A stretch of DNA of 64,000 nucleotides, taken from an uncultured delta proteobacterium (GTDB taxonomy: Bacteria > Desulfobacterota > Desulfuromonadia > Desulfuromonadales > BM103). The stretch covers positions 64,001 through 128,000 of the forward strand of contig CAVQRZ010000005.1 in the NCBI GenBank assembly GCA_963715335.1, given 5' to 3'. Shown one piece after another: positions 7,792 through 25,566 of the stretch; within the stretch, counting starts at the first letter, position 1; each line of letters begins with the position of its first letter. Below the pieces are notes generated by a model. The model was given only the letters and a program-made list of their open reading frames with translations, was not told the DNA's origin and did no database searches. Both the position numbers and the translations under genes were made by a program.

Positions 7792-7879
7792 AGGCTATCT
7801 TTTGGCTCTACTTGCGTTCTGTTTTGATATTAACGTCTGCCGCTGCCCCCTCCTTATCAAGATCCGTAACCTGAATTAC

Positions 7880-7972
7880 AAAAAAAAAGCCCCACAGCCA
7901 GGAGGGGACTGTGGGGCAACGGGTTCTATAGGGTTTTTCTTTAGGAGGTAGAACATGAAGAAAGTATGTTCT
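7880..7972 (-). ncRNA. Candidate ~93-nt sRNA-A, antisense to the RBS/start of the cytochrome c7 gene
   Basis: Own promoter, 5' hairpin AGAACAU/AUGUUCU, internal ACCUCCU, and a terminator with 9-bp stem, loop UCCCCUCCUGG and U9. Confidence 0.7.
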
Positions 7973-7979
7973 GGTTATT

Positions 7980-8007
7980 AGATTACCATTTTGGTCAGAT
8001 ATGTCAA
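7980..8007 (-). promoter_or_regulatory. Sigma70-type promoter of sRNA-A
   Basis: Minus strand reads TTGACA-16 nt-TAATCT with TG in the extended -10 position. Confidence 0.7.
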
Positions 8008-8183
8008 CATGAAAAACACAATAAAAAACCACCCAAGCGCGAACCCGGGTGGCAAGGATCTCCTTGGCTGGAGAGTTTGTAAATATCTCTGTCAACAAGA
8101 AGCCGGTTTTTGTTGCGACATTGGTTACTTACAGGCAGATCTGAGTCAAGGCGAAAGACCCTCCACTTAAGCTTGAATGATCG

Positions 8184-9236
8184 TCAAGACCTTAATTCTT
8201 CATAAATTTCGGCAAATCTTCCGCGACATTTTCGGAAAACCTCCAGAACCTCCGGGTCAAAATGTTCTGGCGAGGTACGATCGCTCCCTTGCAGAATAAT
8301 TGTACAGCTCTTCTCATGGCTAAACGCCTGCTTGTAAGGGCGTTCGCTTCTGAGAGCATCATATTGATCGCAGATATTCATGATTCGCGCGGTGAGAGGT
8401 ATTTCTTCACCCTTCAGGCCGTTTGGGTAGCCCTTGCCGTCCCAACGCTCATGGTGGTATCTGGCAATATCCACCGCCATCTGCAGATACGGAGAATTTG
8501 AGCCTTCCAGTATCTCGGCACCGATGGTTGTATGGGTCTTCATAATCTGCCACTCTGAAGCATTCAGCGGGCCCGGTTTCTGCTGGATAGCATCAGGTAT
8601 GGCCACCTTACCGACATCATGCATCGGCGAGGCATAAAAGATACTCTCGGCAAATTCGCTGCCCAGGTTACAGGCTTCAGCGATCTCCCTGGAGTAATAA
8701 CTGATGCGACTGATATGGGCACCGGTGTACTCATCCTTGAATTCTGAAGCCAGCACCAACCGGTGGATGGTGTCGATATAGCCCTCCCGTAGCAACAGGG
8801 TTCGCTCTGCCACCTGTTTCTCCAAGAGCTGCTTGTGCTCTGCCAGAAAATCATGAAACTCCTTGTTGCGAAGATTGTTTCTGAGTCGCAGAGACAGTTC
8901 CTCATTGTCGATCGGCTTGGTCAGGAAATCATCAGCCCCGATGGCTATGCCCGCCAGCCGATCTTTCCGGGAATCGAGACCAGTGATTATAATCACGGGG
9001 ATATGGGCCGTGTCCTTATCGTTTTTCAAATGTGCCGTAGCTTCAAGACCATCCATCTCCGGCATTACCACATCCATCAGGATGCAGTCTGGATGCTCAG
9101 TACGGGCAAACTCCACGACCTCACGGCCGTTCCTGGCCTTGACAGTTTCATACCCCAGATCTCTACACAGTTCCTCCAAAACCATGATGTGAAACAACTG
9201 GTCATCGGCGATCAGAATTTTTTTTGATGTGGTCAT
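8184..9236 (-). CDS. Response regulator with HD-GYP c-di-GMP phosphodiesterase domain
   Basis: Receiver residues DD/D/K; HDVGK and HHERWDGKGYP. Confidence 0.92.
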   Translation of the reverse strand: MTTSKKILIADDQLFHIMVLEELCRDLGYETVKARNGREVVEFARTEHPDCILMDVVMPEMDGLEATAHLKNDKDTAHIPVIIITGLDSRKDRLAGIAIGADDFLTKPIDNEELSLRLRNNLRNKEFHDFLAEHKQLLEKQVAERTLLLREGYIDTIHRLVLASEFKDEYTGAHISRISYYSREIAEACNLGSEFAESIFYASPMHDVGKVAIPDAIQQKPGPLNASEWQIMKTHTTIGAEILEGSNSPYLQMAVDIARYHHERWDGKGYPNGLKGEEIPLTARIMNICDQYDALRSERPYKQAFSHEKSCTIILQGSDRTSPEHFDPEVLEVFRKCRGRFAEIYEELRS

Positions 9237-9394
9237 GTACCTCTCTTTGATTTAGCTGGATCCATCTCTTGAAACTCTCCAAAAACCCGCCACTGACTCA
9301 CGGGAAAATATCACTGAAGCCAAACATTTTCAATGTTCCACTTCAATCAACACGGAACGCGCACAAAGCTTATACTCTTTGCAGGGAGAAAATA

Positions 9395-10216
9395 TCAGTC
9401 CTCTGGCGGTTTATACAATTTTGGCGGGGGAAGCTTATGCTGCCAGAATCGCTTGGCCAGCCACAGCAGAACCAGCCACAGCAACGCACAGGGCGTGTAA
9501 CGGAAGAGAAAAGTCACCAGCACCGAGGTTTGGATCTCCAGACCGACGACCATGTAAAAGCATACAATTATGTAAGGAAAGATTGGAATCATGGCGAGTT
9601 CACGCCAGCGATAACGGTAATGCCACAACATATGCAACTGCAGCAGGAGGTAGGCCGGGATCGATGCAAGGTTGAGGAAGAAGACAATATCGAAGAGAGC
9701 CCCGTATTTCTGTGGGGAGGGGTCGTAAACATAATCGACCTTGCGTCGTTCGGCCCTGATCATGGGGGGAACCCATTCTGCAGGCTTCCTCGACTCGACT
9801 GAAGCGACATCCTGCCACGTCACGTTCACCTCATGGGAGACCTGCTGCAGCGTCTGCCATTTTTCATCCAGAACGACTATCCTGACGGCATCGACATGCG
9901 TCGGGTTCGTGTACATAACCCACGCCAGGGACTCCCCCGCCCCAGGGGCATGCAACGTTGCTGGATTTCTAATCGCTCCGACTTCGAGTGGCAAGCCATC
10001 CAGCATGGCAATGGCCTGGAAACGCAGCGGGACATCGGCCTCGTAGCGGACCTTGACATACAACTTTTCATCATTGCCGAGCGTTGAACTGACGGCAGGA
10101 TCGACAGCGACAATATCGACTCGCATACCATCGACTGATTGAGCAAAAGCAGATGTCAGGCTGATGCAAAGGAGAAGCAGGCAGAAGAGGAGCGAAGCGG
10201 ATTTCAGATGAGTCAT
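9395..10216 (-). CDS. Hypothetical membrane protein (signal peptide, extracytoplasmic domain, about 3 C-terminal TM helices)
   Basis: Start moved to MTHLKS (10216), which precedes a signal-peptide-like segment; the upstream extension is AT-rich and looks non-coding. Confidence 0.65.
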   Translation of the reverse strand: MTHLKSASLLFCLLLLCISLTSAFAQSVDGMRVDIVAVDPAVSSTLGNDEKLYVKVRYEADVPLRFQAIAMLDGLPLEVGAIRNPATLHAPGAGESLAWVMYTNPTHVDAVRIVVLDEKWQTLQQVSHEVNVTWQDVASVESRKPAEWVPPMIRAERRKVDYVYDPSPQKYGALFDIVFFLNLASIPAYLLLQLHMLWHYRYRWRELAMIPIFPYIIVCFYMVVGLEIQTSVLVTFLFRYTPCALLWLVLLWLAKRFWQHKLPPPKLYKPPED

Positions 10217-10341
10217 ATTGTTCTTTATTATCAGGGTAATAATTCTACTAATTCCGGAGATTTGATTATACCCCAAAACACGTTTCGCATCATAATTATT
10301 TGTAAAAAACGGTCTAAGGAAATTTCGGAGATAGCCCGCAT

Positions 10342-10381
10342 AAAGCTCGCCCCGGTTCATCGGTGAACCGGGGCGAGCTTT
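10342..10381. terminator. Perfect 18-bp hairpin, likely a bidirectional terminator
   Basis: AAAGCTCGCCCCGGTTCA-tcgg-TGAACCGGGGCGAGCTTT. Confidence 0.75.
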
Positions 10382-10590
10382 TACCCGTCGAAGGAGGAGG
10401 GCGGGCTGATTAACTTTTGGGTGGCGGTTTGGCTGGGCTGCGCCCTGCCTTGAATTTTGGTCCCTGAAAGCCGCTTCAGGCGTCCTGCTCGATGGCAGGC
10501 TTGCTCACCACGCTTTACCCGGGATGTTTTCTTTTCAATGTTCTCGACGCTGCCAGACCGGATACCGCGCAACCCAAATTCTATTTGCCT
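10342..10590 (-). ncRNA. Candidate ~250-nt sigma54-dependent non-coding RNA with a CUCCUCCUU loop
   Basis: Lies between a -24/-12 motif and the 18-bp hairpin; no convincing ORF. Confidence 0.45.
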
Positions 10591-10600
10591 GTACTAAGGT

Positions 10601-10616
10601 TGCCAATCGCATGCCA
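10601..10616 (-). promoter_or_regulatory. Sigma54-type (-24/-12) promoter
   Basis: Minus strand TGGCATGCGATTGGCA has correct GG-N10-GC spacing. TGTGTCA/TGACACA repeats lie 115-160 bp upstream. Confidence 0.6.
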
Positions 10617-10885
10617 AAATTGTAAGGCTATGGCGGAAAGAACCGTCAACAAACAATTATCATCAATTATTACAGGTGTTTAAGTGACAGAAAAGTTTAC
10701 TCTCATGATAATCGGCAGGTGCTCATGGGTGTGTCAGAACAGGCTTGTGTCACATATCTTGCCACCGTTGATGACACATTTTGTCGCCGTATTATACGAA
10801 CAACAAGAACGCAAACGACCATACATTCAGTCGTCGACCTGCTATACTGAACGTCGTTATTTTATTACCCCTAAGGAGCAATGTC

Positions 10886-11047
10886 ATGGCCGTTGTCAAA
10901 ATTCTTCTGGCTATTTTTCTTCCCCCTGTTGCAGCCTTCATGCAGGTCGGACCGACGCTGCACTTCTGGGTCAATATAGTTCTTACCCTTCTCGGCGTGT
11001 TGCCTGGTATGGTACATGCGCTCTGGCTGGTCGTCACCAAGAAATAA
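10886..11047 (+). CDS. YqaE/Pmp3 family membrane proteolipid, 53 aa
   Basis: RBS AAGGAG; ILLAIFLPPVA...NIVLTLLG.LPGMVHALW. Confidence 0.9.
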   Translation: MAVVKILLAIFLPPVAAFMQVGPTLHFWVNIVLTLLGVLPGMVHALWLVVTKK

Positions 11048-11842
11048 ATGACAGGATCATCCCAGCCTGTCGGGATATGGATCATGACATCGCTTCTCGA
11101 TCACCCACTCATCAGTGAACGCTACTTTTTTCCCCGTCCGGAGGCACCGGCACAACCATTCTGGGTCGATTGCATCGATGGGATACGTCTGGCCTGTGCG
11201 TACCAGGAAACGAATCCGACCGCGCCAACCGTTGTTCATTTCCATGGCAATGGTGAAGTCGTCGCCGATTACCTCGACGATTTTGCCGGGTTGATCAACC
11301 GGATGGGCTGCAATTGTTTTTTTGCCGAGTTTCGCGGGTACGGCGGGTCTACGGGAACGCCACAGCTTGGTAAAATGCTCGACGACGTCTTGCCAACGAT
11401 CAGGTCAATTGGCTGCGCCGAAGAAAAGATAATTTTGTTCGGACGTTCCGTCGGCTCACTCTTTGCCGTCAAGGCTGCGGAACTGTTTCCAAATGTTGCA
11501 GGAATGATCCTTGAGAGTGCTATCGCGGACCCGATTGAAAGGCTGCTGCTGCGAGTCGATCCCGGAGAAGTGGGAACAACCCCTGCTGAACTTGTAGCGG
11601 CAATCACTGATGCGGTCGATATCAGGGAGGTCATGTCTCAGTTTTCCCGACCGACCCTGATTCTGCACACGCTTCACGACGGACTGATCGACGTCAGTCA
11701 TGCCGAGAGATTGGCCGATTGGTGCGGTGGGCCAACCCGCTTGAAGGTCTTCCCGAACGGCAACCATAACAACATCATGTTCGTCAACGGGCCGCAGTAT
11801 TTCGGCCTGGTCGATGATTTTCTTGCAGCTTTCCGGGAATGA
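11048..11842 (+). CDS. Alpha/beta hydrolase
   Basis: HFHGNGE, RGYGGS, GRSVG nucleophile elbow, plus D and H of the triad. The start could be at 11084. Confidence 0.88.
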   Translation: MTGSSQPVGIWIMTSLLDHPLISERYFFPRPEAPAQPFWVDCIDGIRLACAYQETNPTAPTVVHFHGNGEVVADYLDDFAGLINRMGCNCFFAEFRGYGGSTGTPQLGKMLDDVLPTIRSIGCAEEKIILFGRSVGSLFAVKAAELFPNVAGMILESAIADPIERLLLRVDPGEVGTTPAELVAAITDAVDIREVMSQFSRPTLILHTLHDGLIDVSHAERLADWCGGPTRLKVFPNGNHNNIMFVNGPQYFGLVDDFLAAFRE

Positions 11843-11845
11843 GCG

Positions 11846-12227
11846 GTGAGTTACCGGTTTCTGGCTGACCTGACCCTGGCCCTGCACCTCTGCTTTATCC
11901 TGTTCGTCCTCTTCGGTGGACTGCTCTGCCTGTTCCGAACCAGCATGATCTGGCTTCATCTGCCTGCGGTAGGGTGGGGAATCTGGGTGGAATGGACCGG
12001 TAGAACCTGCCCGTTGACCCCTCTTGAAAACCGTTTCAGGCAGTTGGCTTCCGGTCAGGGCTTTTCTGGTGGTTTCATCGAACACTACCTGATCCCGATT
12101 ATTTACCCTGACCATCTATACGCTTCATTACAATGGCTTTTGGGGACTTGTGGTTATTATCGTCAATCTCGCCGTCTACCTTTTCGTGCTAAGCAGGGTA
12201 AGGAAAAGCTCTCAACAGGTTGACTAA
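11846..12227 (+). CDS. DUF2784-like membrane protein; C-terminus probably frameshifted
   Basis: H..FI.F..FGG, CPLTPLEN, GFIEHY..PIIYP. Removing one G at 12142-12145 restores a final TM helix (GLVVIIVNLAVYLFVL) ending at TAA 12225-12227. Confidence 0.75.
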
Positions 12228-12273
12228 TGATTGCAGTGCGTTACCTTTTAGTAAAACGCGAGGAGGTTATCCC

Positions 12274-12453
12274 ATGTCTGAAAATGATTGCTCAAACCCG
12301 GAAGAACATTGCGAACTACATATGTGTCAGTTGAAAGCAACAACACTTAATGATGAGATCAACAAGCTCTACGAGAATCCGCGTTATGTCTGCGCCAACT
12401 GTGGCGCCAAGGTCAACAGGAAAGAGAATTTGTGCAGTCCGAAACCGATTTGA
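12274..12453 (+). CDS. Small Cys/His-rich protein, 59 aa
   Basis: Strong RBS AGGAGG; HCELHMC, CANCG and a terminal C; followed by a terminator. Confidence 0.75.
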   Translation: MSENDCSNPEEHCELHMCQLKATTLNDEINKLYENPRYVCANCGAKVNRKENLCSPKPI

Positions 12454-12469
12454 ACAGTAACCAGTAATG

Positions 12470-12507
12470 AAAACAGCGCCATTGGGTACAAGGGCGCTGT
12501 TTTTTTG
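12470..12507 (+). terminator. Intrinsic terminator (probably bidirectional)
   Basis: AAACAGCGCC...GGCGCTGTTTTTTT. Confidence 0.8.
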
Positions 12508-12549
12508 TCTCCAGACCATGTTTATAGAACGGTTCGGGGTTTGAGAAAC

Positions 12550-13470
12550 TCACTGAAGGCCAGGGGCAGAAACAAACCGGCCTTTCTGCTTATCCCAGGT
12601 ATAATTTCCGCCATCCCAGAGGTTCTCCAGGTCAACCCAGTCGATGTGTACACCGGCCATGTCTTCTATGGTAAATGAACCCTCGAGCATTTCGGCATCA
12701 TCAATTCGACCATCGGCATTTGTGTCCACCCAGTGAACAGGTGCGACAATGACAGAGCGTTCTCCCTGAATTGGAACTGCCGACTGGCTACCCTCCATGC
12801 TGGCAACGATTTCCCCCTGAAAACCTTCGCTCGACTCCAGCTTGGCTTCCGAATCAACCTCGACAAGATATACGACCCTGTCCCGGACATCACCTGCCTT
12901 GATGATCCAGCGCGCGACACCGTTCACATTATCCAGACTCGAGGCGGGTGGATGGGATTGTGTGATCTTCCACCCTTTCGGAAAATACTCCCGCAGAATC
13001 ACGCCGCCACTCTGGGTACGATGCGTCAGGCGAATCTGTACCGGGATAGTGCTTCCGGGCGCGGCATAAACCGGCAAGAGCCTTTCTGCAGTAACCATCG
13101 CAGGCGGCAGGGGTGATTGGGTCAAAAGAGAACCGATGACGAGAATAGCGAGAAGGAGCGAAACCACAAATGCCAACCAGACGAATGGCGCTTTTGCCCG
13201 TGTGGTGACTACCGAGCCTGGCTCGTCTGCGACAGGCTTAAGCAGGATATCATCGAGCTGGACTTCCAGGGCTTCAGCCAGCTTCAGGGCATTTTCCCGA
13301 CGGATGGTCGGATAGCGGTTATTCTCCCAGCGGGAGATCGTGTCGGTGGTTACACCGACCACCTTGCTGACATACAACTGGGTCAGCTGCGCGTCTTCGC
13401 GAATACGCTTGACCTCTGTTGCATCGATACAGACCTTCGATACCCTGTCTTCCAAACCAGAATGATTCAT
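12550..13470 (-). CDS. XRE-family HTH protein with TM helix and extracytoplasmic domain
   Basis: IREDAQLTQ..VSKVVGVTTDTISRWEN HTH, one TM helix, and an EF-hand-like DTNADGRIDDAE loop. Confidence 0.8.
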   Translation of the reverse strand: MNHSGLEDRVSKVCIDATEVKRIREDAQLTQLYVSKVVGVTTDTISRWENNRYPTIRRENALKLAEALEVQLDDILLKPVADEPGSVVTTRAKAPFVWLAFVVSLLLAILVIGSLLTQSPLPPAMVTAERLLPVYAAPGSTIPVQIRLTHRTQSGGVILREYFPKGWKITQSHPPASSLDNVNGVARWIIKAGDVRDRVVYLVEVDSEAKLESSEGFQGEIVASMEGSQSAVPIQGERSVIVAPVHWVDTNADGRIDDAEMLEGSFTIEDMAGVHIDWVDLENLWDGGNYTWDKQKGRFVSAPGLQ

Positions 13471-13701
13471 ACCGCTGAGTCTACCAAGGGATCAACTAAC
13501 AAGCAAACGCTAAAAAACCCATGTCGACCAACTAGATTTTTTGTTACATAAGACACTGAAAATACAAAGAATAAGCCCTACATCTAGCGACATACGACTC
13601 GATGTCTGATGTCATCCCCATAATATTCGGCTATAAATACATCAAACGTTGTTAAGGCAATTGTGCCGAGAACAAAACACTTTTAACTCAGGAGGAAGAA
13701 C

Positions 13702-13971
13702 ATGAAGAAACTGGTAATCATCATGATGCTGCTGGCGTTCGTCGGTGTCAATGTTGCTATCGCAGCAGACAGCTACACCTACGAGAACAAGAAGGGTAAC
13801 GTTACTTTCGACCACAAGGCTCACCAGGACAAGGTGGGTGACTGTGCCAAATGCCACCAAGGCGAGCCGGCAAAAATTGCTGTCGACAAGGAATACGCCC
13901 ACTCGACTTGCAAAGACTGCCACAAGGACATGAACGGCCCGACCAAGTGTAACGACTGCCACAAGAAGTAA
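13702..13971 (+). CDS. ppcA: Periplasmic triheme cytochrome c7 (PpcA family)
   Basis: Signal peptide, GNVTFDHKAH, three CxxCH motifs, GPTKC; RBS AGGAGG. Which paralog it is cannot be determined. Confidence 0.9.
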   Translation: MKKLVIIMMLLAFVGVNVAIAADSYTYENKKGNVTFDHKAHQDKVGDCAKCHQGEPAKIAVDKEYAHSTCKDCHKDMNGPTKCNDCHKK

Positions 13972-13992
13972 CCTTAACTTACGCAATGCTGC

Positions 13993-14025
13993 AAAAAGGC
14001 CACCGGTTTTAAGGTGGCCTTTTTG
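13993..14025. terminator. Bidirectional intrinsic terminator
   Basis: AAAAAGGCCACC-ggttttaa-GGTGGCCTTTTT between convergent genes. Confidence 0.85.
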
Positions 14026-14070
14026 TTCTTTGATTCCACTCCCAGGCAGCAACGAGTCCCAACTATCTAT

Positions 14071-14988
14071 TCAGAAAATCGACAGCCTGGTCTTGGTTGT
14101 AAACAGTTCCAGAGCCTTGGTCCCTGCGTAAGAGTTCCCGGCTGAATTCAGTGCCGGCGACCACACACACAGAGACATCTGGCCCGGCACAATAGCGACG
14201 ATCCCGCCCCCTACACCGCTTTTTCCCGGCAGGCCGACACGATAGGAAAAATCGCCCGCCGCATCGTAAGTGCCACACGTCAACATAACCGCATTGATCC
14301 GTTTTGCGTGCCTCCGACTGACGATTTCACCAGAGATAGGGGAAACGCCTTGATCCGCCAGGAAAAGGCTCGCCAGGGCCAGTTCTTTGCAGTTCATCAT
14401 CACCGCGCACTGAAAAAAGTAGAAATCAAGAACGTCCTCCACACTGTGCCGAAGATTATCAAAATCCTTGAGCAGGTTGGCCAAGGCCCGGTTGCGATGT
14501 CCGGACTCGATTTCAGCTTTGTAAATGGTCTTCGAAATCTTCATCGAAGGGAGGCCCGTGACTTGTTGTAGAAATGCAAGATACGTTTCCTTGGGGTCGT
14601 CAACGTGGTCAAGGATAATATCCGCAATGACAAGGGCGCCGGCATTGATGAACGGGTTTCGGGGAATTCCGCGCTCATATTCGAGCTGCGTAAGAGCATT
14701 GAAGGGCGTGCCCGAGGGTTCCCTGCCCACCCTCTTCCAGAGCGACGTTCCAACCAGCCGGAATGCCAGCGTCAAAGCAAACAGCTTGGAGATGCTCTGG
14801 ATGGAGAACCTTTCTCCCGCGTCGCCGATCTGACAGGACTGGCCAGCGGTTGTCTGCAGAGCCATGCCGAATTTCTTGCCGGAGACTTTGGCCAGGGGCG
14901 GGATATAGTCCGGAACGGTGCCGCGACCGATCAAGGGCTGGATTTCGCGATGGATCTCATCCAGGACCTCCTGGTAATTCACTGTCAA
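14071..14988 (-). CDS. glsA: Glutaminase
   Basis: DYIP.L, FSIQSISK (SxxK), GREPSG.PFN, NPFINAGA, GKSGVGGG. Confidence 0.95.
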   Translation of the reverse strand: MTVNYQEVLDEIHREIQPLIGRGTVPDYIPPLAKVSGKKFGMALQTTAGQSCQIGDAGERFSIQSISKLFALTLAFRLVGTSLWKRVGREPSGTPFNALTQLEYERGIPRNPFINAGALVIADIILDHVDDPKETYLAFLQQVTGLPSMKISKTIYKAEIESGHRNRALANLLKDFDNLRHSVEDVLDFYFFQCAVMMNCKELALASLFLADQGVSPISGEIVSRRHAKRINAVMLTCGTYDAAGDFSYRVGLPGKSGVGGGIVAIVPGQMSLCVWSPALNSAGNSYAGTKALELFTTKTRLSIF

Positions 14989-15032
14989 CGTCTATACCTC
15001 CTGAAGGGCTGTCGTAGCCGTCCTTGCAACGC

Positions 15033-15908
15033 TCAGCTGATCGCAAGCACGTCAACAGAGACTTTCAACTCATGTTCACCACTACCGAAAGCCACACCTT
15101 TCAACGGTGTCACATCGGTAAAGTCGCGTCCCCAGGCGACTGTAATGTACCGCTCTCCGGGCAGCTGGTTGTTGGTCGGGTCGAAGTCGAGCCAGCCGTG
15201 TTCAGGCAGGTACGCTGAGAACCAGGCATGTGAAGCGTCGGCGCCCACCAGCCGTTCCTTGCCAGGCGGAGGCTCAGTCTCGATGTAACCGCTCACATAG
15301 CGCGCCGCGAGGCCCATGGAACGCAGGCAACCGATCGCCAGGTGGGCAAAATCCTGGCAGACACCGCTACGGTGCTCAAGAACATCTTTTAGTGGAGTCG
15401 CAATGGTGGAGAATTCCGGATCGTAATTGAATTCGTGGAAGATCCTCTGCATCAGGTCACGTACAGCATCGATCAGCGGCCGACCCGGCGAAAAAGATGG
15501 CAGGGCGTAGTCTAAAACCAGGTCATTGACAACAAGCGTAGGCGAATCGAGAACATACTGGGATGCGTCGAGGGCTTCAGCGGACCTGGCGTTACGCAAT
15601 TGTTCCCGGGCCATCTCCCAAGCAAGAATGCCGGCTTCTTCAGGCAGGCTCGCGGCATTGGTCTCGACTTCGCTGGTCGCGGTCACGATCAGTTGGTCAT
15701 GGGGCTGCTGAATGGAGAAATAAGTTGTCCGGTTACCAAAGTAATCAAAGCGTTCGTAATAATCGTATGGCTGCGGTTCGATCAGCAAGCCGGCCGAAAG
15801 GACTTTCTGCTGAGGTAAATCGCGAGGCAGGAGCCTGGCCTCATTGTAACAGAGGCCGACCCGTGCTTCGTAACTGAACTCGGTCGTATGAGTGACGCGG
15901 TATTTCAT
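15033..15908 (-). CDS. Transglutaminase-like protein
   Basis: N-terminal Y.V.H.T...Y domain; GVCQDFAH, HAW and DPT catalytic triad. Confidence 0.92.
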   Translation of the reverse strand: MKYRVTHTTEFSYEARVGLCYNEARLLPRDLPQQKVLSAGLLIEPQPYDYYERFDYFGNRTTYFSIQQPHDQLIVTATSEVETNAASLPEEAGILAWEMAREQLRNARSAEALDASQYVLDSPTLVVNDLVLDYALPSFSPGRPLIDAVRDLMQRIFHEFNYDPEFSTIATPLKDVLEHRSGVCQDFAHLAIGCLRSMGLAARYVSGYIETEPPPGKERLVGADASHAWFSAYLPEHGWLDFDPTNNQLPGERYITVAWGRDFTDVTPLKGVAFGSGEHELKVSVDVLAIS

Positions 15909-18478
15909 ATGTCCTCATCCTGGCGTTGCGGCGACAGCTGCTGATGTGGTTGCGAATGGCTGAAATAGGTGCCGGTGAGCACGTCGGACAATTGCCAGAG
16001 GTTCTCAGTCTGCCTGGAAAGCAATTCTTCCAGCCCCTTGCAGAAGCCATCGCCCTCTTCGATTCTCGACAATTCAACAGCATCGGCCAGACGCAGGGAG
16101 GTAAAGGCTTCGAGGATAGCCCTCTCGTCTGCGCCAAGACGGTGCGACACCTGAGTGCGCGGCAATTCGGCGACGTGGCGCTGCAAGCTATCAAGCTGGA
16201 AAGCCAGAGACCTTGGGTGATGCTGGTCCATCAGAATCAGTTCGAGAACGGTGGGCAGATGCATGTACGAGTGATAACGGCGCCGGAAGGTATTCAGGCT
16301 GTCGCAGATGACCAGCACCGTCTCCATCAGCTGGCGCTTCGTCGTATCATCCATGCCGGGAACTAAGGTGGCACGCAACAGCGAAATTAATCCCAGAGCC
16401 CGTTCCAGCCGTCGACCGATGTCGAGCAGCAGCCATCCGGCTTCCCGGGTCATGCTCTCAGAAGTCAGGCCACTGAATGCAACCAGCTGCATGATCAGGT
16501 GGTCAAGGCGGTCCTGGGTACGATGGCTCCCCGTGCCAGGGTCTTCCTCGTCAACAACCCAATCCTGCCGGATCGCGTCGATGATCCTCCAGATTTCGGT
16601 CGGCCAGTGGTCCCTGACGGTCATGGCAACCTGGCCAAAGGCCTGCAGGGTCGACGTCAGGCTGCCGCTCCGGTGCGCATCCTGCAACAGGGAGCGCAGC
16701 TCAGGGCGAGGCTGCTCCAGAAGCTTTTCAGCCCCCTCATCGACAAATCCCGGGTAAGTTCCGGTCACATGGGTCAGAGCGCGCAACAGGTTGTGAAGGT
16801 AGGAGATAGGCCTCCCGCCGTTGGCATCACGCAACTCCCTCCGGAGCAGATAGATGGCCCGCAACAGGCGGGCCGTCCCCTCAGCCCTCTCGACGTAGCG
16901 GCCGGCCCAGAACAGGTTGTCCGCAGCACGGCTCGGCAGTGGCTCGATGCGAAACTGCAGGACCTGGTCTTCTTTCGGCTGCCTCCATAGGCTGACGTAT
17001 TCAACCGGTTCATTCGACAGGACCCAGGCGTCCTTGCTCAAACCGCCGGCCCGGTTGGAAACCACCAGCTCTCCTTCCCGGGCGGCAATCCGCGTCAGAC
17101 CGCCAGGCATGGCGATATAGCCATCCTCGCCGGCCACCAGGAAAGAACGAAGCACCGCGTGACGCGGCTCAACCTGACCATCAACCAGCGACGGGGCGGT
17201 CGAAAAACTGACCATTTCCTGGCCGGTGTAAAGATGCGGTTTGTGCAGAATGCGCGCGCGCAATTCGGCCTGTTCGGCTTGTGTCAATTGAGCACCAAAA
17301 ACCGAACGGTAACCCCGTGTGCGGTGAATCGTCTTTATGACCAGCTTTTCCAGATTCTCGAGAACGAACCGACGTTCATTCTCCTGACCACACCACCAGG
17401 TCGCAACCGAGGGAAGCTTGAGGTCTTCGTCAAAGAAGTGCTTCGCAATCCCTGGGAGGAACGCCAGCAGCCCAGGGTTTTCCAGCACACAACTGCCGAT
17501 CGGGTTGGCAATCGCCACGTGGCCGAGACGGGCCGACTGCATCAGTCCGGTCACGCCGAGCCGGGAGTCCTCCCGCAGTTCCAGCGGATCGCAATAGGCA
17601 TCATCGACGCGACGCAGGATCACGTCAACCTGGTGCAATCCCTCCAGAGATTTGAGCCAGACCCGCCCGTCGCGGACGCTCAGGTCATCGCCCTGGACCA
17701 ATGTATAGCCGAGGTAATTGGCAAGGTAGGCGTGTTCGAAGTAGCTCGGGCTGTAGGGCCCGGGTGTCAGGACCACGATCCGCGGGTCTTCCCGATTCTG
17801 CGGCGCAAGGCTGGCGAGACGGTCCCGGAAAGGCTGGAAGAAGCCGGCCAGCCGTCGGACATGGCAGGCACGAAAGAGCGCCGGGGCGATGCGCGTCATG
17901 ACCATGCGGTTTTCCAGCGCATAACCGGCCCCGGAAGGAGTCTGCGCACGGTCATCGATTACCCACATGCGACCGTCCGGACCACGGGCAAGGTTGGAAG
18001 AGCAGATGGTCAGTGAGCGACCACCGTTGGTGATCGACCCGACGCAGGAGCGCTGGAAACCGGCGTGGCCGAATACCAGCTCAGGCGGCAGGAGGCCTTC
18101 GAGCAAAAGCTGCTGGGGACCGTAGATATCAGCCAGAATCAGGTTGAGCAGTTCCGCCCGCTGGACCAGGCCGGCCTCTATAACCGACCACTCCTCGGCA
18201 CTGATGAACAGAGGGATCGGGTCAAGCTCCCAGGGGCGGGCCATACCGCGCAGCCCGTCGTAGATATTGAAGGTGACGCCGTTCTCACGCAGCAGGCGCT
18301 GGGCCTCCAGGTGGCGGCGTTCAAGCCCCTCCCGGCCGAGCTGGTCGAGCTCCTGCATGAGGGTTTGCCAGTGGGGGAGAATGCTCCCCTCACCGGCATA
18401 CAACTCGTCATAGGCTTCGAGCCTGGGGGCGTAATACTGGGCAATTGACTCGGAAATCTGGTTATCGGGCTGTTCCAC
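15905..18478 (-). CDS. Circularly permuted type 2 ATP-grasp protein fused to an alpha-E domain
   Basis: PSGAGYALENR, YFEHAYLA, RRVDD...DPLE, MPGGLTR, SKDAWV; then PSRAADNLFWAGRYVERAE and GRRLER. Confidence 0.9.
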   Translation of the reverse strand: MEQPDNQISESIAQYYAPRLEAYDELYAGEGSILPHWQTLMQELDQLGREGLERRHLEAQRLLRENGVTFNIYDGLRGMARPWELDPIPLFISAEEWSVIEAGLVQRAELLNLILADIYGPQQLLLEGLLPPELVFGHAGFQRSCVGSITNGGRSLTICSSNLARGPDGRMWVIDDRAQTPSGAGYALENRMVMTRIAPALFRACHVRRLAGFFQPFRDRLASLAPQNREDPRIVVLTPGPYSPSYFEHAYLANYLGYTLVQGDDLSVRDGRVWLKSLEGLHQVDVILRRVDDAYCDPLELREDSRLGVTGLMQSARLGHVAIANPIGSCVLENPGLLAFLPGIAKHFFDEDLKLPSVATWWCGQENERRFVLENLEKLVIKTIHRTRGYRSVFGAQLTQAEQAELRARILHKPHLYTGQEMVSFSTAPSLVDGQVEPRHAVLRSFLVAGEDGYIAMPGGLTRIAAREGELVVSNRAGGLSKDAWVLSNEPVEYVSLWRQPKEDQVLQFRIEPLPSRAADNLFWAGRYVERAEGTARLLRAIYLLRRELRDANGGRPISYLHNLLRALTHVTGTYPGFVDEGAEKLLEQPRPELRSLLQDAHRSGSLTSTLQAFGQVAMTVRDHWPTEIWRIIDAIRQDWVVDEEDPGTGSHRTQDRLDHLIMQLVAFSGLTSESMTREAGWLLLDIGRRLERALGLISLLRATLVPGMDDTTKRQLMETVLVICDSLNTFRRRYHSYMHLPTVLELILMDQHHPRSLAFQLDSLQRHVAELPRTQVSHRLGADERAILEAFTSLRLADAVELSRIEEGDGFCKGLEELLSRQTENLWQLSDVLTGTYFSHSQPHQQLSPQRQDEDI

Positions 18479-18526
18479 GGCAGGGGCCTCGTAGCGTCAA
18501 CATGGCATTGATTATCCTCGGCCCGA

Positions 18527-21500
18527 TTATATTCCAGGAAGGCGTCGCAAATCCACGGTATAAGGGAACTCTTCGTTCGGTTCTTCTTCAGGTGGCGTCA
18601 TCGGTCCTGTCGAACCAGTGATAGGCGTAAAAGTACCAAGTCCGACAAATGCGGGCGGGGCTGTCTGTACCGAACCCGGCTCAGCGCCAAGATCCCAGAA
18701 CCGGGTGATGCGACGGGCTTCGGCCTCAAAGGCATTGACCGGGAAGACGTCGTAACTGCGTCCTCCCGGGTGGGAGACGTGGTAGGTGCAGCCGCCGATC
18801 GCCTGGCCGCTCCAGGTGTCGACAATATTAAAGACCAGCGGCGAGTGCGGCTTGATCGTCGGATGCAGCGCCGAAGGCGGCTGCCATGCCCGGTAACGGA
18901 CGCCGACGACAAATTCGCCCTTGCGACCGGTGCTGCGCAAGGCCAGTCGCCGACCATTGCAGACCACGACGTGACGCAGTTCGGTCAGCCCATTGATCCG
19001 CAGTTGCAGCCGCTCTACAGAAGAGTCGACAAACCGGGCGGTTCCCTGGCTCCCCATCTCTTCACCAAGCACGTGCCAGGGCTCAATAGCGAAGCGCAGC
19101 TCGAGCTCCATGGCATCGATATTCACAGAACCGAAGTGCGGAAAGCGGAACTCGAGGAACGGTTCAAACCATTCCAGTTCAAACGGGTAGCCCGCCCGGT
19201 TCAGGTCAACCACTACTTCCCGCATATCCTCACGGACAAAGTGCGGCAGCAGGAACCGATCGTGGAGCTCCGTGCCCCAACGCACCAGATCGTGCTCATA
19301 GGGCTTTTCCCAGAACCAGGCCACCAGGGTACGCAGGAGCAGGTTCTGCACCAAGCTCATACGGGCGTGAGGGGGCATCTCGAAAGCACGCATTTCAACC
19401 AGGCCGAGGCGTCCCGAAGAGCTGTCGGGGGAGTAAAGCTTGTCGATGCAGAACTCGGCGCGGTGGGTGTTGCCGGTCATGTCGATCAAAAGGTTGCGCA
19501 GCAGCCGGTCAACCAGCCAGGGGGCAGGCACCTCCCCTTTCGGCATCTGCTGGAACGCGATTTCGAGTTCATAAAGCGCGTCATTGCGTGCCTCGTCGAC
19601 GCGCGGGGCCTGGCTGGTCGGGCCAATAAACATTCCGGAGAAGAGATAGGAGAGCCCCGGATGGTGCTGCCAGTAGGTGACCAGGCTGCGCAGCAGGTCG
19701 GGCCGTCGCAGCACCGGACTGTCGGCCGGGGTCGCCCCGCCGATCGTGATATGGTTGCCGCCGCCGGTTCCGGAATGGCGGCCGTCGAGCATGAACTTCT
19801 CCGTACCAAGACGGCTCTGACGGGCCTCCTCGTAGAGGATCGTGGTGTTGTCCACCAGTTCCCGCCAACTGGCCGCCGGGTGGATATTGACTTCGATGAC
19901 GCCCGGGTCAGGGGTCACAAGCAGGCGCTCCAGGCGATAGTCCCGCGGCGGCTCATAGCCTTCGATGACCACTGGCATGGACAACTCTGCAGCGGTCGCC
20001 TCAATCGTCGCTACCAGGTCCAGGTAATGTTCGAGCTTCTTCAGCGGTGCCATAAAAACATGCAGGCGGCCGTCACGAGCTTCGACGCAGAGTGCCGTGT
20101 GAGGGATCTTGATCAGAGCATCCCCGCGGCGCTCATCAGCGAGCGGTTGTTCGTGAACTTCCGGATGGGCCATCACCGGCTTTTCAACCTTGCTGTACCT
20201 TTTCGCGACTTCGCCATGGGCATCCTCAAGAACCGGCAAGGCTGCGAACTGGTCGTGCTCGGCGCTAACTTCCCGTTTCTCTGGAGCCTCCCATGGCAGT
20301 GAATCAAGCGGCAGGCGCAGGCCCATCGCTGATCCGCCCGGAATCAGGAACATCTGTCCCCGACGGAACTCCCAGGGGCCGCTGTACCAGCCGCCGCTTT
20401 TTGCGTCCCACTGTAGCGGCAGAGCATAGCCGGACGGCGTTCCGAGTCCCTTGTCCAGCAACTTGGCCAGATACTGGCGTTCAAGAGAGTCTTTGAGATC
20501 GACCTTGAGCGGGTCGACATTATCCGGCAGAGTACCCTCTTTCCACAGGTAATAGAAAACATCCTCATAGCCCGGCACCACCCGTCGCGGATCAACCCCA
20601 AGACGTCTCGCCAGTTCGCTGGCGAAGCGTTCGGCGTGCTCATGAGTTATGTCGTAACTCTTGGCAATATTGGCGAGCAACTCAGGGTTCTTCCACACCG
20701 GAACACCGTCCTTGCGCCAGAAACAGCCGTAAGCCCAGCGCGGCAGCTGTTCGCCGGGATACCATTTCCCCTGGCCGAAGTGCAGCAACCCACCACTGCT
20801 GAATGACTCACGTAGACGGCGGACCAGGTTGTTGGCCAACTCCCTTTTGTGCGGACCATCAGCCTTGGTGTTCCATTCATCACCTTCCATATCATCGATC
20901 GATACGAAAGTCGGCTCACCGCCCATGGTCAGGCGGACATCTCCGCTGGTCAGGTCGGCGTCGACCTGCTCTCCCAGAGCATCAATCCGTGCCCATTGCT
21001 CATCGCTGTAGGGTTTGGTCACCCGCGGGTCTTCGTGGATACGCTTGACGCTGTTTTCGAAATCGAAGGTCACCTCGCACTTGTCCATAGAACCTGTAAC
21101 CGGAGCCGCACTGGAGTAATGCGGTGTACAGGCCAGCGGGATATGACCTTCTCCGGCAAGCAGCCCGGAGGTCGGGTCAAGTCCGATCCAGCCTGCACCG
21201 GGGATATAGACCTCGGCCCAGGCGTGCAGATCGGTAAAATCGACCTCGGTACCGGAGGGCCCGTCGAGCGATTTCTCATCGGCAGTCAGCTGGATCAGGT
21301 AGCCCGAAACAAAACGCGCCGCCAGCCCCAGATGGCGCAGGATCTGCACCAGCAGCCAGCCCGAGTCCCGACAGGATCCGATCTTCCGTTCAAGGGTCTC
21401 TTCGGCGGTCTGTACCCCGGGCTCCATGCGCACGGAGTAATTGACCGACTCGCGGACCATCTGGTTCAGGTTGACCAGGAAATCAACGGTCGTGGTCGGT

Positions 21501-21910
21501 GAACGATCGATCTTTTCCAGCCAGGCACTCAGCAGCGGTCCACTGTCGGTTATCTCGAAGTAAGGCGTCAGTTCCTTGCGCAATTGGGCTTCGTAAGTAA
21601 AAGGGATTTTCTCGGCAGATTCTTCAACAAAAAAATCGAACGGGTTGATGACGGTCATGTCGGCGACCACCTCGACCTCGATTCTCAGCTCGCGGGTCTT
21701 CTCAGGAAACACCAGCCGCGCCAGGTAGTTGCCAAAGGGGTCCTGCTGCCAGTTGAGAAAATGCGTATCGGGAGCGATGCGCATTGCATAGGCACGGATC
21801 GGGGTCCGCGAATGCGGTGCCGGCCGCAGGCGCAGGACGTGCGGCGAGAGGTTGATCGGCCGGTCAAAGCGGTAATGCGTGATGTGCCTGCAGGCAACGC
21901 GGATGGACAT
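18527..21910 (-). CDS. Transglutaminase-like domain fused to a putative amidoligase (DUF2126-type)
   Basis: GSCRDSG/HAW/DPT triad, then GGEPTF, DPGVIEVN, GGGNH, HRAEFCIDK. Confidence 0.88.
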   Translation of the reverse strand: MSIRVACRHITHYRFDRPINLSPHVLRLRPAPHSRTPIRAYAMRIAPDTHFLNWQQDPFGNYLARLVFPEKTRELRIEVEVVADMTVINPFDFFVEESAEKIPFTYEAQLRKELTPYFEITDSGPLLSAWLEKIDRSPTTTVDFLVNLNQMVRESVNYSVRMEPGVQTAEETLERKIGSCRDSGWLLVQILRHLGLAARFVSGYLIQLTADEKSLDGPSGTEVDFTDLHAWAEVYIPGAGWIGLDPTSGLLAGEGHIPLACTPHYSSAAPVTGSMDKCEVTFDFENSVKRIHEDPRVTKPYSDEQWARIDALGEQVDADLTSGDVRLTMGGEPTFVSIDDMEGDEWNTKADGPHKRELANNLVRRLRESFSSGGLLHFGQGKWYPGEQLPRWAYGCFWRKDGVPVWKNPELLANIAKSYDITHEHAERFASELARRLGVDPRRVVPGYEDVFYYLWKEGTLPDNVDPLKVDLKDSLERQYLAKLLDKGLGTPSGYALPLQWDAKSGGWYSGPWEFRRGQMFLIPGGSAMGLRLPLDSLPWEAPEKREVSAEHDQFAALPVLEDAHGEVAKRYSKVEKPVMAHPEVHEQPLADERRGDALIKIPHTALCVEARDGRLHVFMAPLKKLEHYLDLVATIEATAAELSMPVVIEGYEPPRDYRLERLLVTPDPGVIEVNIHPAASWRELVDNTTILYEEARQSRLGTEKFMLDGRHSGTGGGNHITIGGATPADSPVLRRPDLLRSLVTYWQHHPGLSYLFSGMFIGPTSQAPRVDEARNDALYELEIAFQQMPKGEVPAPWLVDRLLRNLLIDMTGNTHRAEFCIDKLYSPDSSSGRLGLVEMRAFEMPPHARMSLVQNLLLRTLVAWFWEKPYEHDLVRWGTELHDRFLLPHFVREDMREVVVDLNRAGYPFELEWFEPFLEFRFPHFGSVNIDAMELELRFAIEPWHVLGEEMGSQGTARFVDSSVERLQLRINGLTELRHVVVCNGRRLALRSTGRKGEFVVGVRYRAWQPPSALHPTIKPHSPLVFNIVDTWSGQAIGGCTYHVSHPGGRSYDVFPVNAFEAEARRITRFWDLGAEPGSVQTAPPAFVGLGTFTPITGSTGPMTPPEEEPNEEFPYTVDLRRLPGI

Positions 21911-21944
21911 AAACTGAATAACTCCCTGGGAATCCGTCTGATGA

Positions 21945-22934
21945 TCAGATCCCTAGCTCTGTGATTGATCTTGCACGGCAGAGGTTGCCGAGGAAATCGA
22001 GAAGAAACGTCTCGAAAACAACTTTACTTACGTCATTCAGGCGGGTCTGCAAGTCGTCGATAAACTCGTGAAGGCCAATCGCCTTGATGTCGTCAATGGT
22101 CGTGTAATCGAGGTCTGCCAGCAGACGCCCGAGCGTCTTTTCAGCGCGGTTGGTAAAGCGGCCGCGCATGGTCCCCGAAATATTGCGCAGCGATAGCTCC
22201 GCGATAATCAGGCAATGGTGAATCGCCCGCGGGAACTCGGCGTCAAGCACCATGAACTCGATAATCTGGTCGGGAACAATCTGGCCATAATCCTTGCGAT
22301 ACATTTCGAAGGCGCTGGCTGAACGCAGGATCGACCCCCAGAGGATGTGATCGTAAGGCGTGCCGACATACTCTACTGAAGGCAGCAGAATAAAATACTT
22401 GACGTCGATGATCCGGGCGGTCTTGTCTGCCCTCTCGAGCATCCTGCCGAGCCGGGCAAACTGCCAGCCATCACCGTGAGTCATGGTGTTCTGCGACAGC
22501 CCGGTAAAGAGATGGCTGGCGAGCATGACTTCAACAAAGAATTCGTGCGGGAGTTCAATCCCACCGCTGTTACGTGAGGCCTCCTTGACGAGCAGGTAGA
22601 AGGTGTTGACCTGCTGCCACATCTCGGAGCTGATCCATTCACGTACCGAGCGGGCATTTTCCCTGGCCATCTGCAGGCAGGAAAGAATCGAATTGGGATT
22701 TCTGGTGTCGAATGTCAAAAACTGGACAACGTTCTCCTCGTTGAAATCGTCGTAGAATTTTTTGAACAGGTCTTCGTCGCCGGTCGTCACGATCAGCGGC
22801 TCCCACTGCTCGCCAACGCCGCTTGGCAGGTCAAGGATCATGTGATAGTTGGCGTCCATGATCCGCGCCACGTTTTCAGCCCGCTCGACATAGCGGGCCA
22901 TCCAGTACATCGATTCAGCAACACGGCTCAGCAT
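21945..22934 (-). CDS. Alpha-E domain protein (C-terminus possibly frameshifted; corrected stop at 21953)
   Basis: [44 protein letters not shown]. Confidence 0.9.
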
Positions 22935-24391
22935 GCGGCACCCCCTTCCATGACCGAACGGTCCTCGACCACCCAGGTATCCTTGCTGCCGCCGCCCTGG
23001 CTCGAGTTGACCACCAGGGAGCCCTTCTTCAACGCAACCCGGGTCAGGCCGCCGGGCATGACATAGATCTCCTCACCGTAGAGGATATAGGGGCGCAAGT
23101 CGACGTGCCGACCTTCGAAGTGATCGTCAATCAGGGTCGGCACCCGTGAGAGCGCGAGGGTCGGCTGGGCAATGTAATTGCGCGGATTGGCCTTGACCTG
23201 CTCGGCGTATTCGGCGCGCTCCTTCGAACTGGCGTGCGGCCCGACCAGCATGCCGTAGCCGCCCGACTCTCCGACTTTCTTCACCACCAGCTTGTCGAGA
23301 TTGGCCAACACGTGCTGCAAGTCCTTGTCGCGCCAGCAAAGATAGGTCTCGACATTATTGAGGATCGCGTCCTGGTCGAGATAGTAGCGGATCATCTCCG
23401 GGACATAGGCGTAGATGGCCTTGTCGTCGGCCACCCCGGTCCCCGGGGCGTTGGCCAGAGCGACGCGACCGGCGCGGTAGGCACGCATCAGGCCCGGGAC
23501 ACCGAGCATCGAGTCTTTGCGAAACACCTCCGGATCGATGAAATCGTCGTCGATACGCCGGTAGAGGACATCGATCGGTTTCAGACCTGCCGTCGTACGC
23601 ATCATGACACGGTCGTCAACCACCACCAGATCACTCCCCTCCACCAGTTCGATCCCCATCTGTTGAGCGAGGAAGGAATGTTCGAAGTAGGCCGAGTTGT
23701 AGACACCGGGCGTCCAGACCGCGACCACGGGTTTGTCACGGCGCGGCGGCGCGAGGAACTGCAGGAGCTCCAGTAGGCGGTTCGGGTAATCAACCACCGG
23801 CACGACGTGTGCGGCATCGAAGGCGCGCGGAAAGCTGCGTTTCATGACCACGCGGTTTTCAAGCACATAAGAGACACCCGACGGGCAGCGCAGGTTGTCT
23901 TCGAGCACATAGAACTGCCCGTCAGCGCCGCGTACCAGGTCGGTCCCGGTGATATGGCACCAGACGCCGCCCGGGGGATTGAGACCTATACATTCCGGGC
24001 GATAACCGCTCGCCGACAGGACCAGGTCCTTCGGGATGATGCCATCCTTGAGAATTCTCTGATCATGGTAGAGATCGTCGATAAAGAGGTTGAGAGCCTG
24101 GACTCTCTGTTTGAGTCCGGCCTCCATAACGATCCATTCGTTATGAGCGATAATGCGCGGAACAATGTCGAAGGGGAAAATCCGCTCCGTGCCCTGCTCA
24201 TCTCCGTAAACGCTGAACGTGATCCCCATCTGCAACAGGGCTTTCTCTGCCGACTGCTGGCGGCGCCGGAGCTCTTCAAGGGGCAATTCGTTGAATCGAC
24301 TGACCACGGCTTCAGTGCCGGGGCGAGGGCGCCCTTCCGCATCGAACATCTCGTCGTAGAAACCGTCGAGCGAATAATTTTCAAATTGCAT
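22928..24391 (-). CDS. Circularly permuted type 2 ATP-grasp protein
   Basis: [56 protein letters not shown]. Confidence 0.92.
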
Positions 24392-24525
24392 ACCGGGTCC
24401 TTTCGTTGGCAGGGGAATATGAAGGAGATAGCCTTACGATTCAAGCCTATTCTGTGTATTATCAAATATTTTCAGTTGTTAATGATTTTCTGTTTCAAGA
24501 TAATCAGGGTCGCAATTTGCTGCTT

Positions 24526-24554
24526 ATTATACCATACTTGAAAAATCTGTGGAA
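24526..24554 (-). promoter_or_regulatory. Extended -10 promoter of the ATP-grasp operon
   Basis: Minus strand TG-g-TATAAT (24534-24526) with a weak TTCCAC 17 nt upstream. Confidence 0.55.
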
Positions 24555-24618
24555 GACGCCGGCGGCCGCCAGGCATTGCCGTGTTGCAGTGAATTCCCGC
24601 CGCGCATAGAATGGGGCC

Positions 24619-25257
24619 ATGAATTATCGCTATATCTTCTGGGACAACGATGGTGTGCTTGTCGATACGGAACGGTTTTATCTCCAGGCCAGCAGGGAAG
24701 CGCTCGCCAGGGTCGCCATTGAACTGAGCGACGAACAGTTCGCGGAGATTTCGCTGGCAGCGGGACGCAGCATCTTCGATCTCGCGGCCGGGTCCGGGGT
24801 CTCCGAGCAGTCAGTCACCGCTTTGAAAGAGTGGCGGGAAAAGCGCTATGCGAAACTTCTCTGGCAAGAGGACATTTCTCTCGACGGGGCAGCTGAGGTA
24901 CTGAATATGCTCCACGGCAGACTCGGCATGGCTGTCGTGACAAGCTCACGGAAGCATCACTTCGACATTATCCACAGCAGGACGGGTTTTCTGCCTTATT
25001 TCGACTTCTGCCTGACACGCGAGGACTACACCAACAGCAAGCCCTCAGCAGAACCGTACCAACTGGCCTTGAAACGCAGCGGGATTGAAGCAGGAGAGGT
25101 CCTCGTGATTGAAGATTCGCCACGGGGTTTGAGAGCGGCGAAAGCTGCCGGGCTGGCATGCTGGGTCCTGCCGGGACATCACACCTCAGGGCAGGATTTT
25201 GCCGAAGCCGACAGGATTCTCTCTGATATCAGGGACGTCATGGATATCACCTCGTGA
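24619..25257 (+). CDS. HAD-family phosphatase
   Basis: DNDGVLVDTE, TSS, KP, EDSPRG motifs. Confidence 0.9.
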   Translation: MNYRYIFWDNDGVLVDTERFYLQASREALARVAIELSDEQFAEISLAAGRSIFDLAAGSGVSEQSVTALKEWREKRYAKLLWQEDISLDGAAEVLNMLHGRLGMAVVTSSRKHHFDIIHSRTGFLPYFDFCLTREDYTNSKPSAEPYQLALKRSGIEAGEVLVIEDSPRGLRAAKAAGLACWVLPGHHTSGQDFAEADRILSDIRDVMDITS

Positions 25258-25306
25258 GACATTCCAGACAGCTCACTTTTTTCTCACATTTTTCTCAAAA
25301 ATACTC

Positions 25307-25335
25307 TTGCCAAGAACTTTCTGCTTTGATATATT
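25307..25335 (+). promoter_or_regulatory. Sigma70-type promoter of sRNA-B
   Basis: TTGCCA-17 nt-TATATT with extended TG; AT-rich upstream. Confidence 0.65.
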
Positions 25336-25341
25336 TCAGCC

Positions 25342-25417
25342 AACTCTTCGATTGCCTGCAAGCCGAAGAGCTTTGGACCCCGCGTATCCCCCCCCTCCTT
25401 ACGCGGGGTCTTTTTTT
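25342..25417 (+). ncRNA. Candidate ~76-nt sRNA-B with anti-SD terminator loop
   Basis: 5' stem CUCUUCG/CGAAGAG; 11-bp stem GACCCCGCGUA/UACGCGGGGUC, loop U-C8-UCCU, then U7. Confidence 0.65.
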
Positions 25418-25466
25418 GTCTTTTGCCGTCGCACTGCGCTGTCCCTGTGTCATCCTCGATTTTCTC

Positions 25467-25495
25467 TTGACGGATCCCCAAAAATTTCTTAGGAT
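25467..25495 (+). promoter_or_regulatory. Sigma70-type promoter of sRNA-C
   Basis: TTGACG-17 nt-TAGGAT. Confidence 0.65.
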
Positions 25496-25501
25496 TCACT
25501 C

Positions 25502-25566
25502 ATGTTCCCCTGACAATGGTCAGGGCTTTTGCCCCGTGATTCCCCTCCTTCGCGGGGCCATTTTTT
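25502..25566 (+). ncRNA. Candidate ~65-nt sRNA-C with anti-SD terminator loop
   Basis: 5' stem CCCUGAC/GUCAGGG; stem GCCCCGUGA/UCGCGGGGC, loop UUCCCCUCCU, then U6. Confidence 0.62.

Follow-up and report, generated by a model that had tools for sequence, protein, structure and literature searches.

A dispersed family of predicted small RNA genes with an anti-Shine-Dalgarno terminator loop in Desulfuromonadia

The stretch studied here (the window) comprises 64,000 nucleotides from an uncultured delta proteobacterium of the order Desulfuromonadales (assembly GCA_963715335.1, contig CAVQRZ010000005.1, positions 64,001 to 128,000). It carries three short units, A, B and C, each ending in an intrinsic terminator whose loop displays a CCUCC motif complementary to the Shine-Dalgarno sequence (anti-SD). 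We found that these units are members of a dispersed multicopy family that is class-wide and conserved. The original prediction was of a modular family of stand-alone small RNA (sRNA) genes that have the anti-SD terminator loop in common and differ in their 5' parts; as a prediction from sequence, it is supported. We consider it probable that the RNAs act in trans at Shine-Dalgarno (SD) regions, likely with Hfq, and repress translation.

Conserved loop, covarying stem and copy number

The stems, loops and U tracts of A, B and C were recovered exactly as first quoted, and each unit has a 5' hairpin, as proposed; the promoter claimed for unit A was not found by the consensus scan. Folding placed the CCUCC motif in the terminator loops of A, B and C with an unpaired probability of 0.99-1.0, in predicted RNAs of about 93 nt (A), 78 nt (B) and 66 nt (C). 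A covariance model of the hairpin matched only these three units in the window (46-54 bits, next best 12.8). The 9-mer containing the motif is by itself not enriched in the window, with 15 matches at one mismatch against 17 expected, so that the unusual feature is its placement in terminator loops. One free CCCCCUCCUU motif, outside any hairpin, lies at 7846-7856 (+) just beyond the A terminator, on the opposite strand, behind fixGHI-type and DsbD-like genes.

In the whole genome, the CCUCC loop occurred in 17 of 480 strict intergenic terminators, a count from which B and C had been dropped by a spurious open reading frame filter and which includes one doubtful hairpin, compared with 1.4 expected from the pooled loop letters (maximum 7 in 2000 draws). 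An upstream stop codon within 80 nt was present at none of these 17 terminators and at 188 of the 463 others, and a promoter score of at least 11 bits was reached by 8/17 compared with 7/463. The enrichment of the loop, its distance from stop codons and the presence of own promoters therefore indicate that these are not mRNA terminators. The objection that the loop might be equally frequent in ordinary mRNA terminators thus clearly fails, none of the 17 being directly behind a gene.

Among 77 distinct hairpins, 94.3% of cells were paired, a value inflated by the selection of this set with a hairpin pattern, and double changes were seen at 7 of the 10 pairs. The covariation score was 0.586; shuffles gave 0.197 and slid controls no more than 0.125. 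The terminator stem shows strong covariation around a conserved CCUCC loop.

The hairpin model gave 16 matches at E <0.001 in this genome; patterns added three copies that it had missed, and we therefore state the copy number as 16-19. It also matched 39 of 41 genomes of the class at E <=0.01 (1-18 matches per genome within the host's order, 0-5 elsewhere in the class), weak matches among which may be plain terminators, and 6 of 117 genomes outside the class at E <=0.0005. A strict pattern matched 27 of the 41 relatives and its reversed control none. A broader scan of genomes returned at least 117 loci. When 125 loci were checked, the hairpin formed in 82, mostly assigned to Desulfuromonadales, Geobacteraceae or delta proteobacterium, with 17 outside. 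The covariance-model scan proposed at the outset has thus revealed a family far larger than three units.

Dispersed paralogs that are 75-90% alike and shift in position could also be selfish or neutral repeats. We regard this as highly improbable in view of the at most 12 blast matches around any copy, of the likeness among A paralogs, which starts just before the -35 box and ends at the U tract, and of the B plus C tandem and the C-type structure, both kept across the order. It is very unlikely that the units instead act in cis, as leaders or attenuators of the gene that follows, which is the type assigned to the atoC RNA (RF01733) in Rfam. A same-strand gene does lie 136-318 nt downstream of 9 of 18 copies, and at approximately 14 of the 20 top atoC loci an iron-sulfur (Fe-S) protein gene of one and the same kind follows. 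However, 9 of the 18 copies, A, B and C among them, face a convergent gene, the neighbours differ from copy to copy, and in the host's order atoC-type units stand tail to tail with an rrf2 gene at 16 of 29 loci, and two of these units exceed the Rfam cut-off. The family is independent of its neighbours.

Branches, promoters and the palindromic box of the A branch

The promoter scan of the units found two sites, at B and C, compared with 0.2 in shuffles. No site was reported at unit A, whose -10 box matches the consensus at 3/6 positions only. The -35 hexamer of A is perfect and, together with the T, A and last T of the -10 box, invariant in all 31 aligned relatives. C-type units have the promoter in 21/21 relatives and a 5' hairpin with different stems in 22/22. 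RNAalifold applied to a MAFFT alignment of C-type units missed this hairpin, which single folds show, because the stems do not align by sequence. In the window and at nine further loci that were aligned across the order, a B-type unit lies upstream of C; B plus C is an old tandem.

The A-type promoter and seed were found in 19 of the 41 genomes, all of the host's family, in up to ten copies. According to the alignment, A-type units carry a second anti-SD outside the loop that is extended by an anti-AUG stretch; the anti-SD part of this seed was on average 0.85 unpaired across 31 copies. Their 5' hairpin is AU-rich and its fold differs between relatives. Other branches in the genome have different 5' parts and upstream motifs. 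The motif TTTACGA-N-CCACGT occurs seven times in the genome (C5:53186, C15:24696/30449/12061, C19:101000, C28:28298/16125), each time upstream of a family member, and is a candidate site of a regulator or sigma factor for one branch. The same branch bears the Rrf2-type box described below in other families.

We also weighed whether the opposite strand is the working one, either as a CsrA sponge with AGGAGG loops or as a small peptide gene with SD and ATG. The reverse of A indeed reads SD, ATG and an eight-codon frame, and GGA in loops is the CsrA motif (PMC11934962). Nevertheless, this is hardly credible: the genome is without CsrA, the frame ranges from 3 to 34 codons, the ATG is missing in 2 of 31 copies, and promoter and U tract belong to the C-rich strand.

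The spacer and -10 box of unit A are covered by a 25-bp imperfect palindrome, whose arms match on average at 6.4 of 9 positions over 31 A-type copies. It is a candidate operator of an Rrf2-family repressor. Its 9-7-9 layout resembles the sites of IscR and RirA. A matrix of this box, whose training set included four of the five A-type copies it recovered, gave 17 sites in the genome compared with 5 in each of three shuffles, and the best 11 (>=20.8 bits) are intergenic. Five sites are A-type promoters. Among the other sites are those in front of a gene with a metallo-beta-lactamase fold (two copies, one checked), yceI, the malate synthase-isocitrate lyase genes (aceBA), ahpC and the phosphoenolpyruvate carboxykinase gene, and the products encoded behind the box were verified as Lactamase_B, YceI, malate synthase, isocitrate lyase, AhpC and phosphoenolpyruvate carboxykinase. 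One box lies approximately 170 bp before feoAB. Sites of the candidate regulon are at C9:52624, C10:27327, C14:111829, C19:96398, C29:66667, C18:45646 and C33:61092.

Among the three Rrf2 genes of the genome, one alone has a like site upstream. The IscR-like and CymR-like genes were rejected as the regulator, no box being present upstream of either (scores of -12 and -1). The box-bearing rrf2 gene is present in 60 of 61 genomes of the order, and the box core precedes it in 22 of 29 loci compared with 0.37 in shuffles. No named NCBIfam equivalog fits the encoded protein (C19:133870-134256). Its closest homologue in the other order of the class (four genomes, 37-40% identity) precedes a gene for cytochrome bd subunit I (one checked). 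In cobalt-stressed Geobacter sulfurreducens, the rrf2 gene GSU1639, a cytochrome bd subunit, a peroxiredoxin and a beta-lactamase-fold hydrolase decrease together, as given in an excerpt of PMC7726332. HgtR was discarded as regulator of the box, its site, in the excerpt of PMC2817479, being different in sequence.

Predicted action and targets

The genome encodes Hfq (E 3e-22). Three of the four commonest hexamers before its start codons are AAGGAG, GGAGGA and AGGAGG, and the terminator loop is complementary to the SD hexamers that the genome uses most. At the level of sequence, the usual attributes of an Hfq-dependent sRNA are present: an intergenic gene with its own promoter, an intrinsic terminator with U tail, a conserved unpaired seed and a host that encodes Hfq. 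Transcription, Hfq binding, mRNA pairing and repression are the steps that we infer from these data. Each gene, with its promoter-like site and terminator, would yield a predicted RNA of 65-95 nt whose open CCUCCU loop may pair with the SD regions of many mRNAs, likely via Hfq, and so block the start of translation in trans. The 3' module that all units share likely serves for docking in general, and to it the individual branches would add their own promoters and 5' parts. In the A branch, the second anti-SD/anti-AUG stretch would add pairing to the mRNA start. The order-wide Rrf2 repressor likely holds this branch off, with release in redox or Fe-S stress and probably together with ahpC, aceBA, yceI and the metallo-hydrolase gene. 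The released A RNAs would damp SD-AUG-AAG starts, which are common in exported proteins.

Among 2855 predicted starts, the best match of the A seed was a gene for an MtrB/PioB porin behind a multiheme cytochrome gene. The pairing comprises 13 bp, a 2x2 loop and 6 bp (-27.7 kcal/mol, compared with a mean of -10.9). Signal peptides were predicted for 18 of the 50 top targets compared with 17.8% (p 0.0015). In two genomes (L258 in G020, L259 in G007), an A-type gene is convergent with an mtrB-type porin gene and lies within approximately 0.7 kb behind it. Contigs of environmental RNA runs gave scattered low cover from relatives or none (two of four runs over window positions 7000-26500; four runs over another A-type copy). 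We read the targeting as broad and weak at SD-AUG regions, with a single target not proven.

An unlikely alternative is that the RNAs are made and serve as decoys or sponges, the C-rich loop binding a protein or other small RNAs and not mRNA starts. The fixed loop across branches with unrelated 5' parts would fit this, as would the failure to find a conserved single target and the high copy number, which suits titration. On the other hand, the A seed complements SD, spacer and AUG in register, as suits mRNA pairing, and the loop matches the genome's commonest SD hexamers.

Several points weigh against repression in trans and its control by Rrf2, in addition to the inflated pairing in the hairpin set and the training of the box matrix mentioned above. 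The 3' end of the 16S rRNA was not found in this assembly, so that SD usage and general knowledge are the basis of the anti-SD match. A bare anti-SD loop of 7 nt confers little specificity. As a conserved target, mtrB was not supported: its pairing was no stronger where A-type genes are present (-15.9) than where they are absent (-15.0; p 0.40; 17 versus 8 loci, three with wrong starts). Random 5' hexamers gave nearly the same enrichment of signal peptides (unit A alone 16, controls 4-16). Finally, the Rrf2 regulator has been assigned by position only.

A bolder proposal, which we put forward as speculation and would not expect to hold in full, is a class-wide sRNA toolkit of metal reducers, in which one anti-SD terminator module would stand behind different regulated promoters, with the atoC RNA as a misfiled member. 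The A branch, with up to ten copies, would provide an Rrf2 redox/Fe-S regulon with its RNA arm, by which translation of exported cytochromes and porins is shut off, and so act as a post-transcriptional brake on extracellular electron transfer.

Table 1. Positions of the features of units A, B and C, numbered in the 64-kb window; RNA ends are predicted.
Feature	Position	Strand	Remarks
Unit A, -35 hexamer	8002..8007	-	invariant in 31/31 A-type copies
Unit A, 25-bp imperfect palindrome (9-7-9), candidate operator	7978..8002		covers spacer and -10; putative site of an Rrf2-family repressor
Unit A, -10 hexamer, 16-bp spacer	7980..7985	-	T, A and last T conserved; missed by consensus scan
Unit A, predicted RNA of about 93 nt	7880..7973	-	fold; predicted ends
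Unit A, weak 7-bp 5' hairpin	7950..7972	-	fold; variable among relatives
Unit A, seed (second anti-SD), complementary to SD, spacer, AUG and next codons	7943..7963	-	conserved in alignment
Unit A, terminator hairpin with CCCUCCU loop	7889..7917	-	covariance model 54 bits; U tract 7880-7888
Unit B, sigma70-type promoter with TG extension	25307..25335	+	promoter scan 10/12; TTG and TA invariant in 10/10 B-type loci
Unit B, 5' hairpin	25344..25371	+	fold
Unit B, terminator with C8-UCCU loop and U tract	25376..25417 (hairpin 25376-25410)	+	46.9 bits; loop invariant in 10/10 B-type loci
Unit C, sigma70-type promoter	25467..25495	+	promoter scan 9/12; 21/21 C-type relatives >=8 bits at this place
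Unit C, 7-bp 5' hairpin, preceded by short unpaired 5' end	25508..25525	+	kept in 22/22, sequences differ
Unit C, terminator with UUCCCCUCCU loop and U tract	25531..25566 (hairpin 25531-25558)	+	45.9 bits

The fourth candidate put forward originally, D (10342-10590), is not a member of the family: CUCCUCCUU resides in an inner hairpin, the terminator loop is without the motif, and the model does not match D. It is a structured unit of approximately 250 nt (10342-10617, minus strand) behind a GG-N10-GC site, which we take to be sigma54-like. D is conserved as a whole in the genus, and a 40-nt two-hairpin core (10464-10504) was matched in 32 of the 41 relatives, often in several copies; no Rfam family matched D. 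Its stretch GCCUGCCA is complementary to the conserved UGGCAGGC of another family branch. Elsewhere in the window, an operon at 15033-24391 (-) encodes two circularly permuted ATP-grasp proteins, alpha-E domains and two transglutaminase-like proteins, followed by glutaminase.

Relation to atoC RNA and other known systems

An Rfam search of the window returned tRNAs only and no match to RF01733 or RF02278. The original suggestion that the family might be undescribed stands insofar as A, B and C lie below every Rfam cut-off. It does not stand for the family as a whole, because RF01733 shares both the loop and the two-hairpin plan, and three relatives retrieved by a pattern derived from A-C (L060, L074, L095) score 52-60 bits on it (cut-off 50), compared with 17.9 bits for unit A and 25.1 bits for the best copy in the genome. 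In the literature searched, to which the atoC passages of files S1 and S3 of Weinberg et al. did not belong, we found this family nowhere described and no characterised base-pairing sRNA for Geobacter and relatives. The multicopy features in the portions of PMC2700814 and PMC3543383 that were covered include no such hairpin family; files 13-19 of PMC2700814 were outside this scope and its alignments are broken into letter groups.

The atoC RNA belongs to the same bacterial class and likewise has an unpaired 5' end, a P1 hairpin, a 5-nt linker and a CCC-based terminator with CCCUCCU loop and U tract, the P2 features being shared by A-C. Unlike B and C, whose P1 occupies the same place with another sequence, its P1 opens with a conserved UUGCGAG, and it is catalogued 5' of a same-strand gene, whereas A, B and C face convergent genes. 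The excerpt of Weinberg et al. 2010 (PMC2864571) lists it as probably cis-regulatory, from eight delta-proteobacterial sequences, mostly single-copy. We found RF01733 above its cut-off in 57 of 121 genomes of the class, mostly once. A TTG -35 box stands before a -10 box in 19 of the 20 best loci, and the Rfam model begins with the letters of this -10 box. The downstream genes, named from reading their translations, vary. The copy beside rrf2 is missing from this genome; the one in G343 scores 60 bits. Because of its own promoter and its tail-to-tail placement with rrf2, the atoC RNA looks like a stand-alone sRNA of the same build, and it is probably catalogued under the wrong type. A model trained without atoC sequences scored atoC terminators at 14-29 bits and did not list the atoC site in 5/5 genomes at E <=1. 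Hence loop and plan are shared but common descent with A-C is unproven.

Geobacter and its relatives encode Hfq and are models for electricity-producing and metal-reducing respiration. The present work yields candidate sRNA genes in nearly every genome of the class, together with a likely regulator and regulon for one branch, and argues for listing the atoC RNA in Rfam as a stand-alone sRNA and no longer as a cis element. Since the complete genomes of the class include an atoC-type member, cultured strains allow a direct test of the idea.

The predicted action has analogies in two groups of RNAs, described here from excerpts of PMC5688073 and PMC4615179. The Burkholderia double-hairpin or toxic small RNAs (RF02278; PMC5688073) occur as 3-5 short homologues per genome with two hairpins, CU-rich open regions predicted over the ribosome-binding site and a shared upstream motif. 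They are betaproteobacterial, relatives found here reach 20-22 bits against a cut-off of 50, and, unlike them, the present family has several branches with different promoters and one common terminator module. The cuckoo/alpha-r14/CcsR RNAs (RF02344; PMC4615179) also have the anti-SD in hairpin loops, freely varying stems, several copies and tandem arrangement. However, they carry CCUCCUCCC in each of 2-4 adjacent hairpins, whereas here one CCCUCCU is found in the terminator loop, and scores here are at most 32 bits against a cut-off of 58.8. Five loci, mostly from outside the class (L070, L072 and L075, two of these from Ca. Binatia, L083 from Bdellovibrionales, and L051), are two-hairpin units with C-rich loops in both hairpins and stand nearer to the cuckoo RNAs (ar14 up to 32 bits). 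Listeria LhrC, Pseudomonas ErsA, Xanthomonas sX13 and RsaE/RoxS share C-rich motifs in an open linker and in the terminator loop. Of the Rfam models, LhrC matches unit A best, but all four, which come from other phyla or classes, remain far below their cut-offs (LhrC 26.7 bits versus 110, ErsA 25.8 versus 50).

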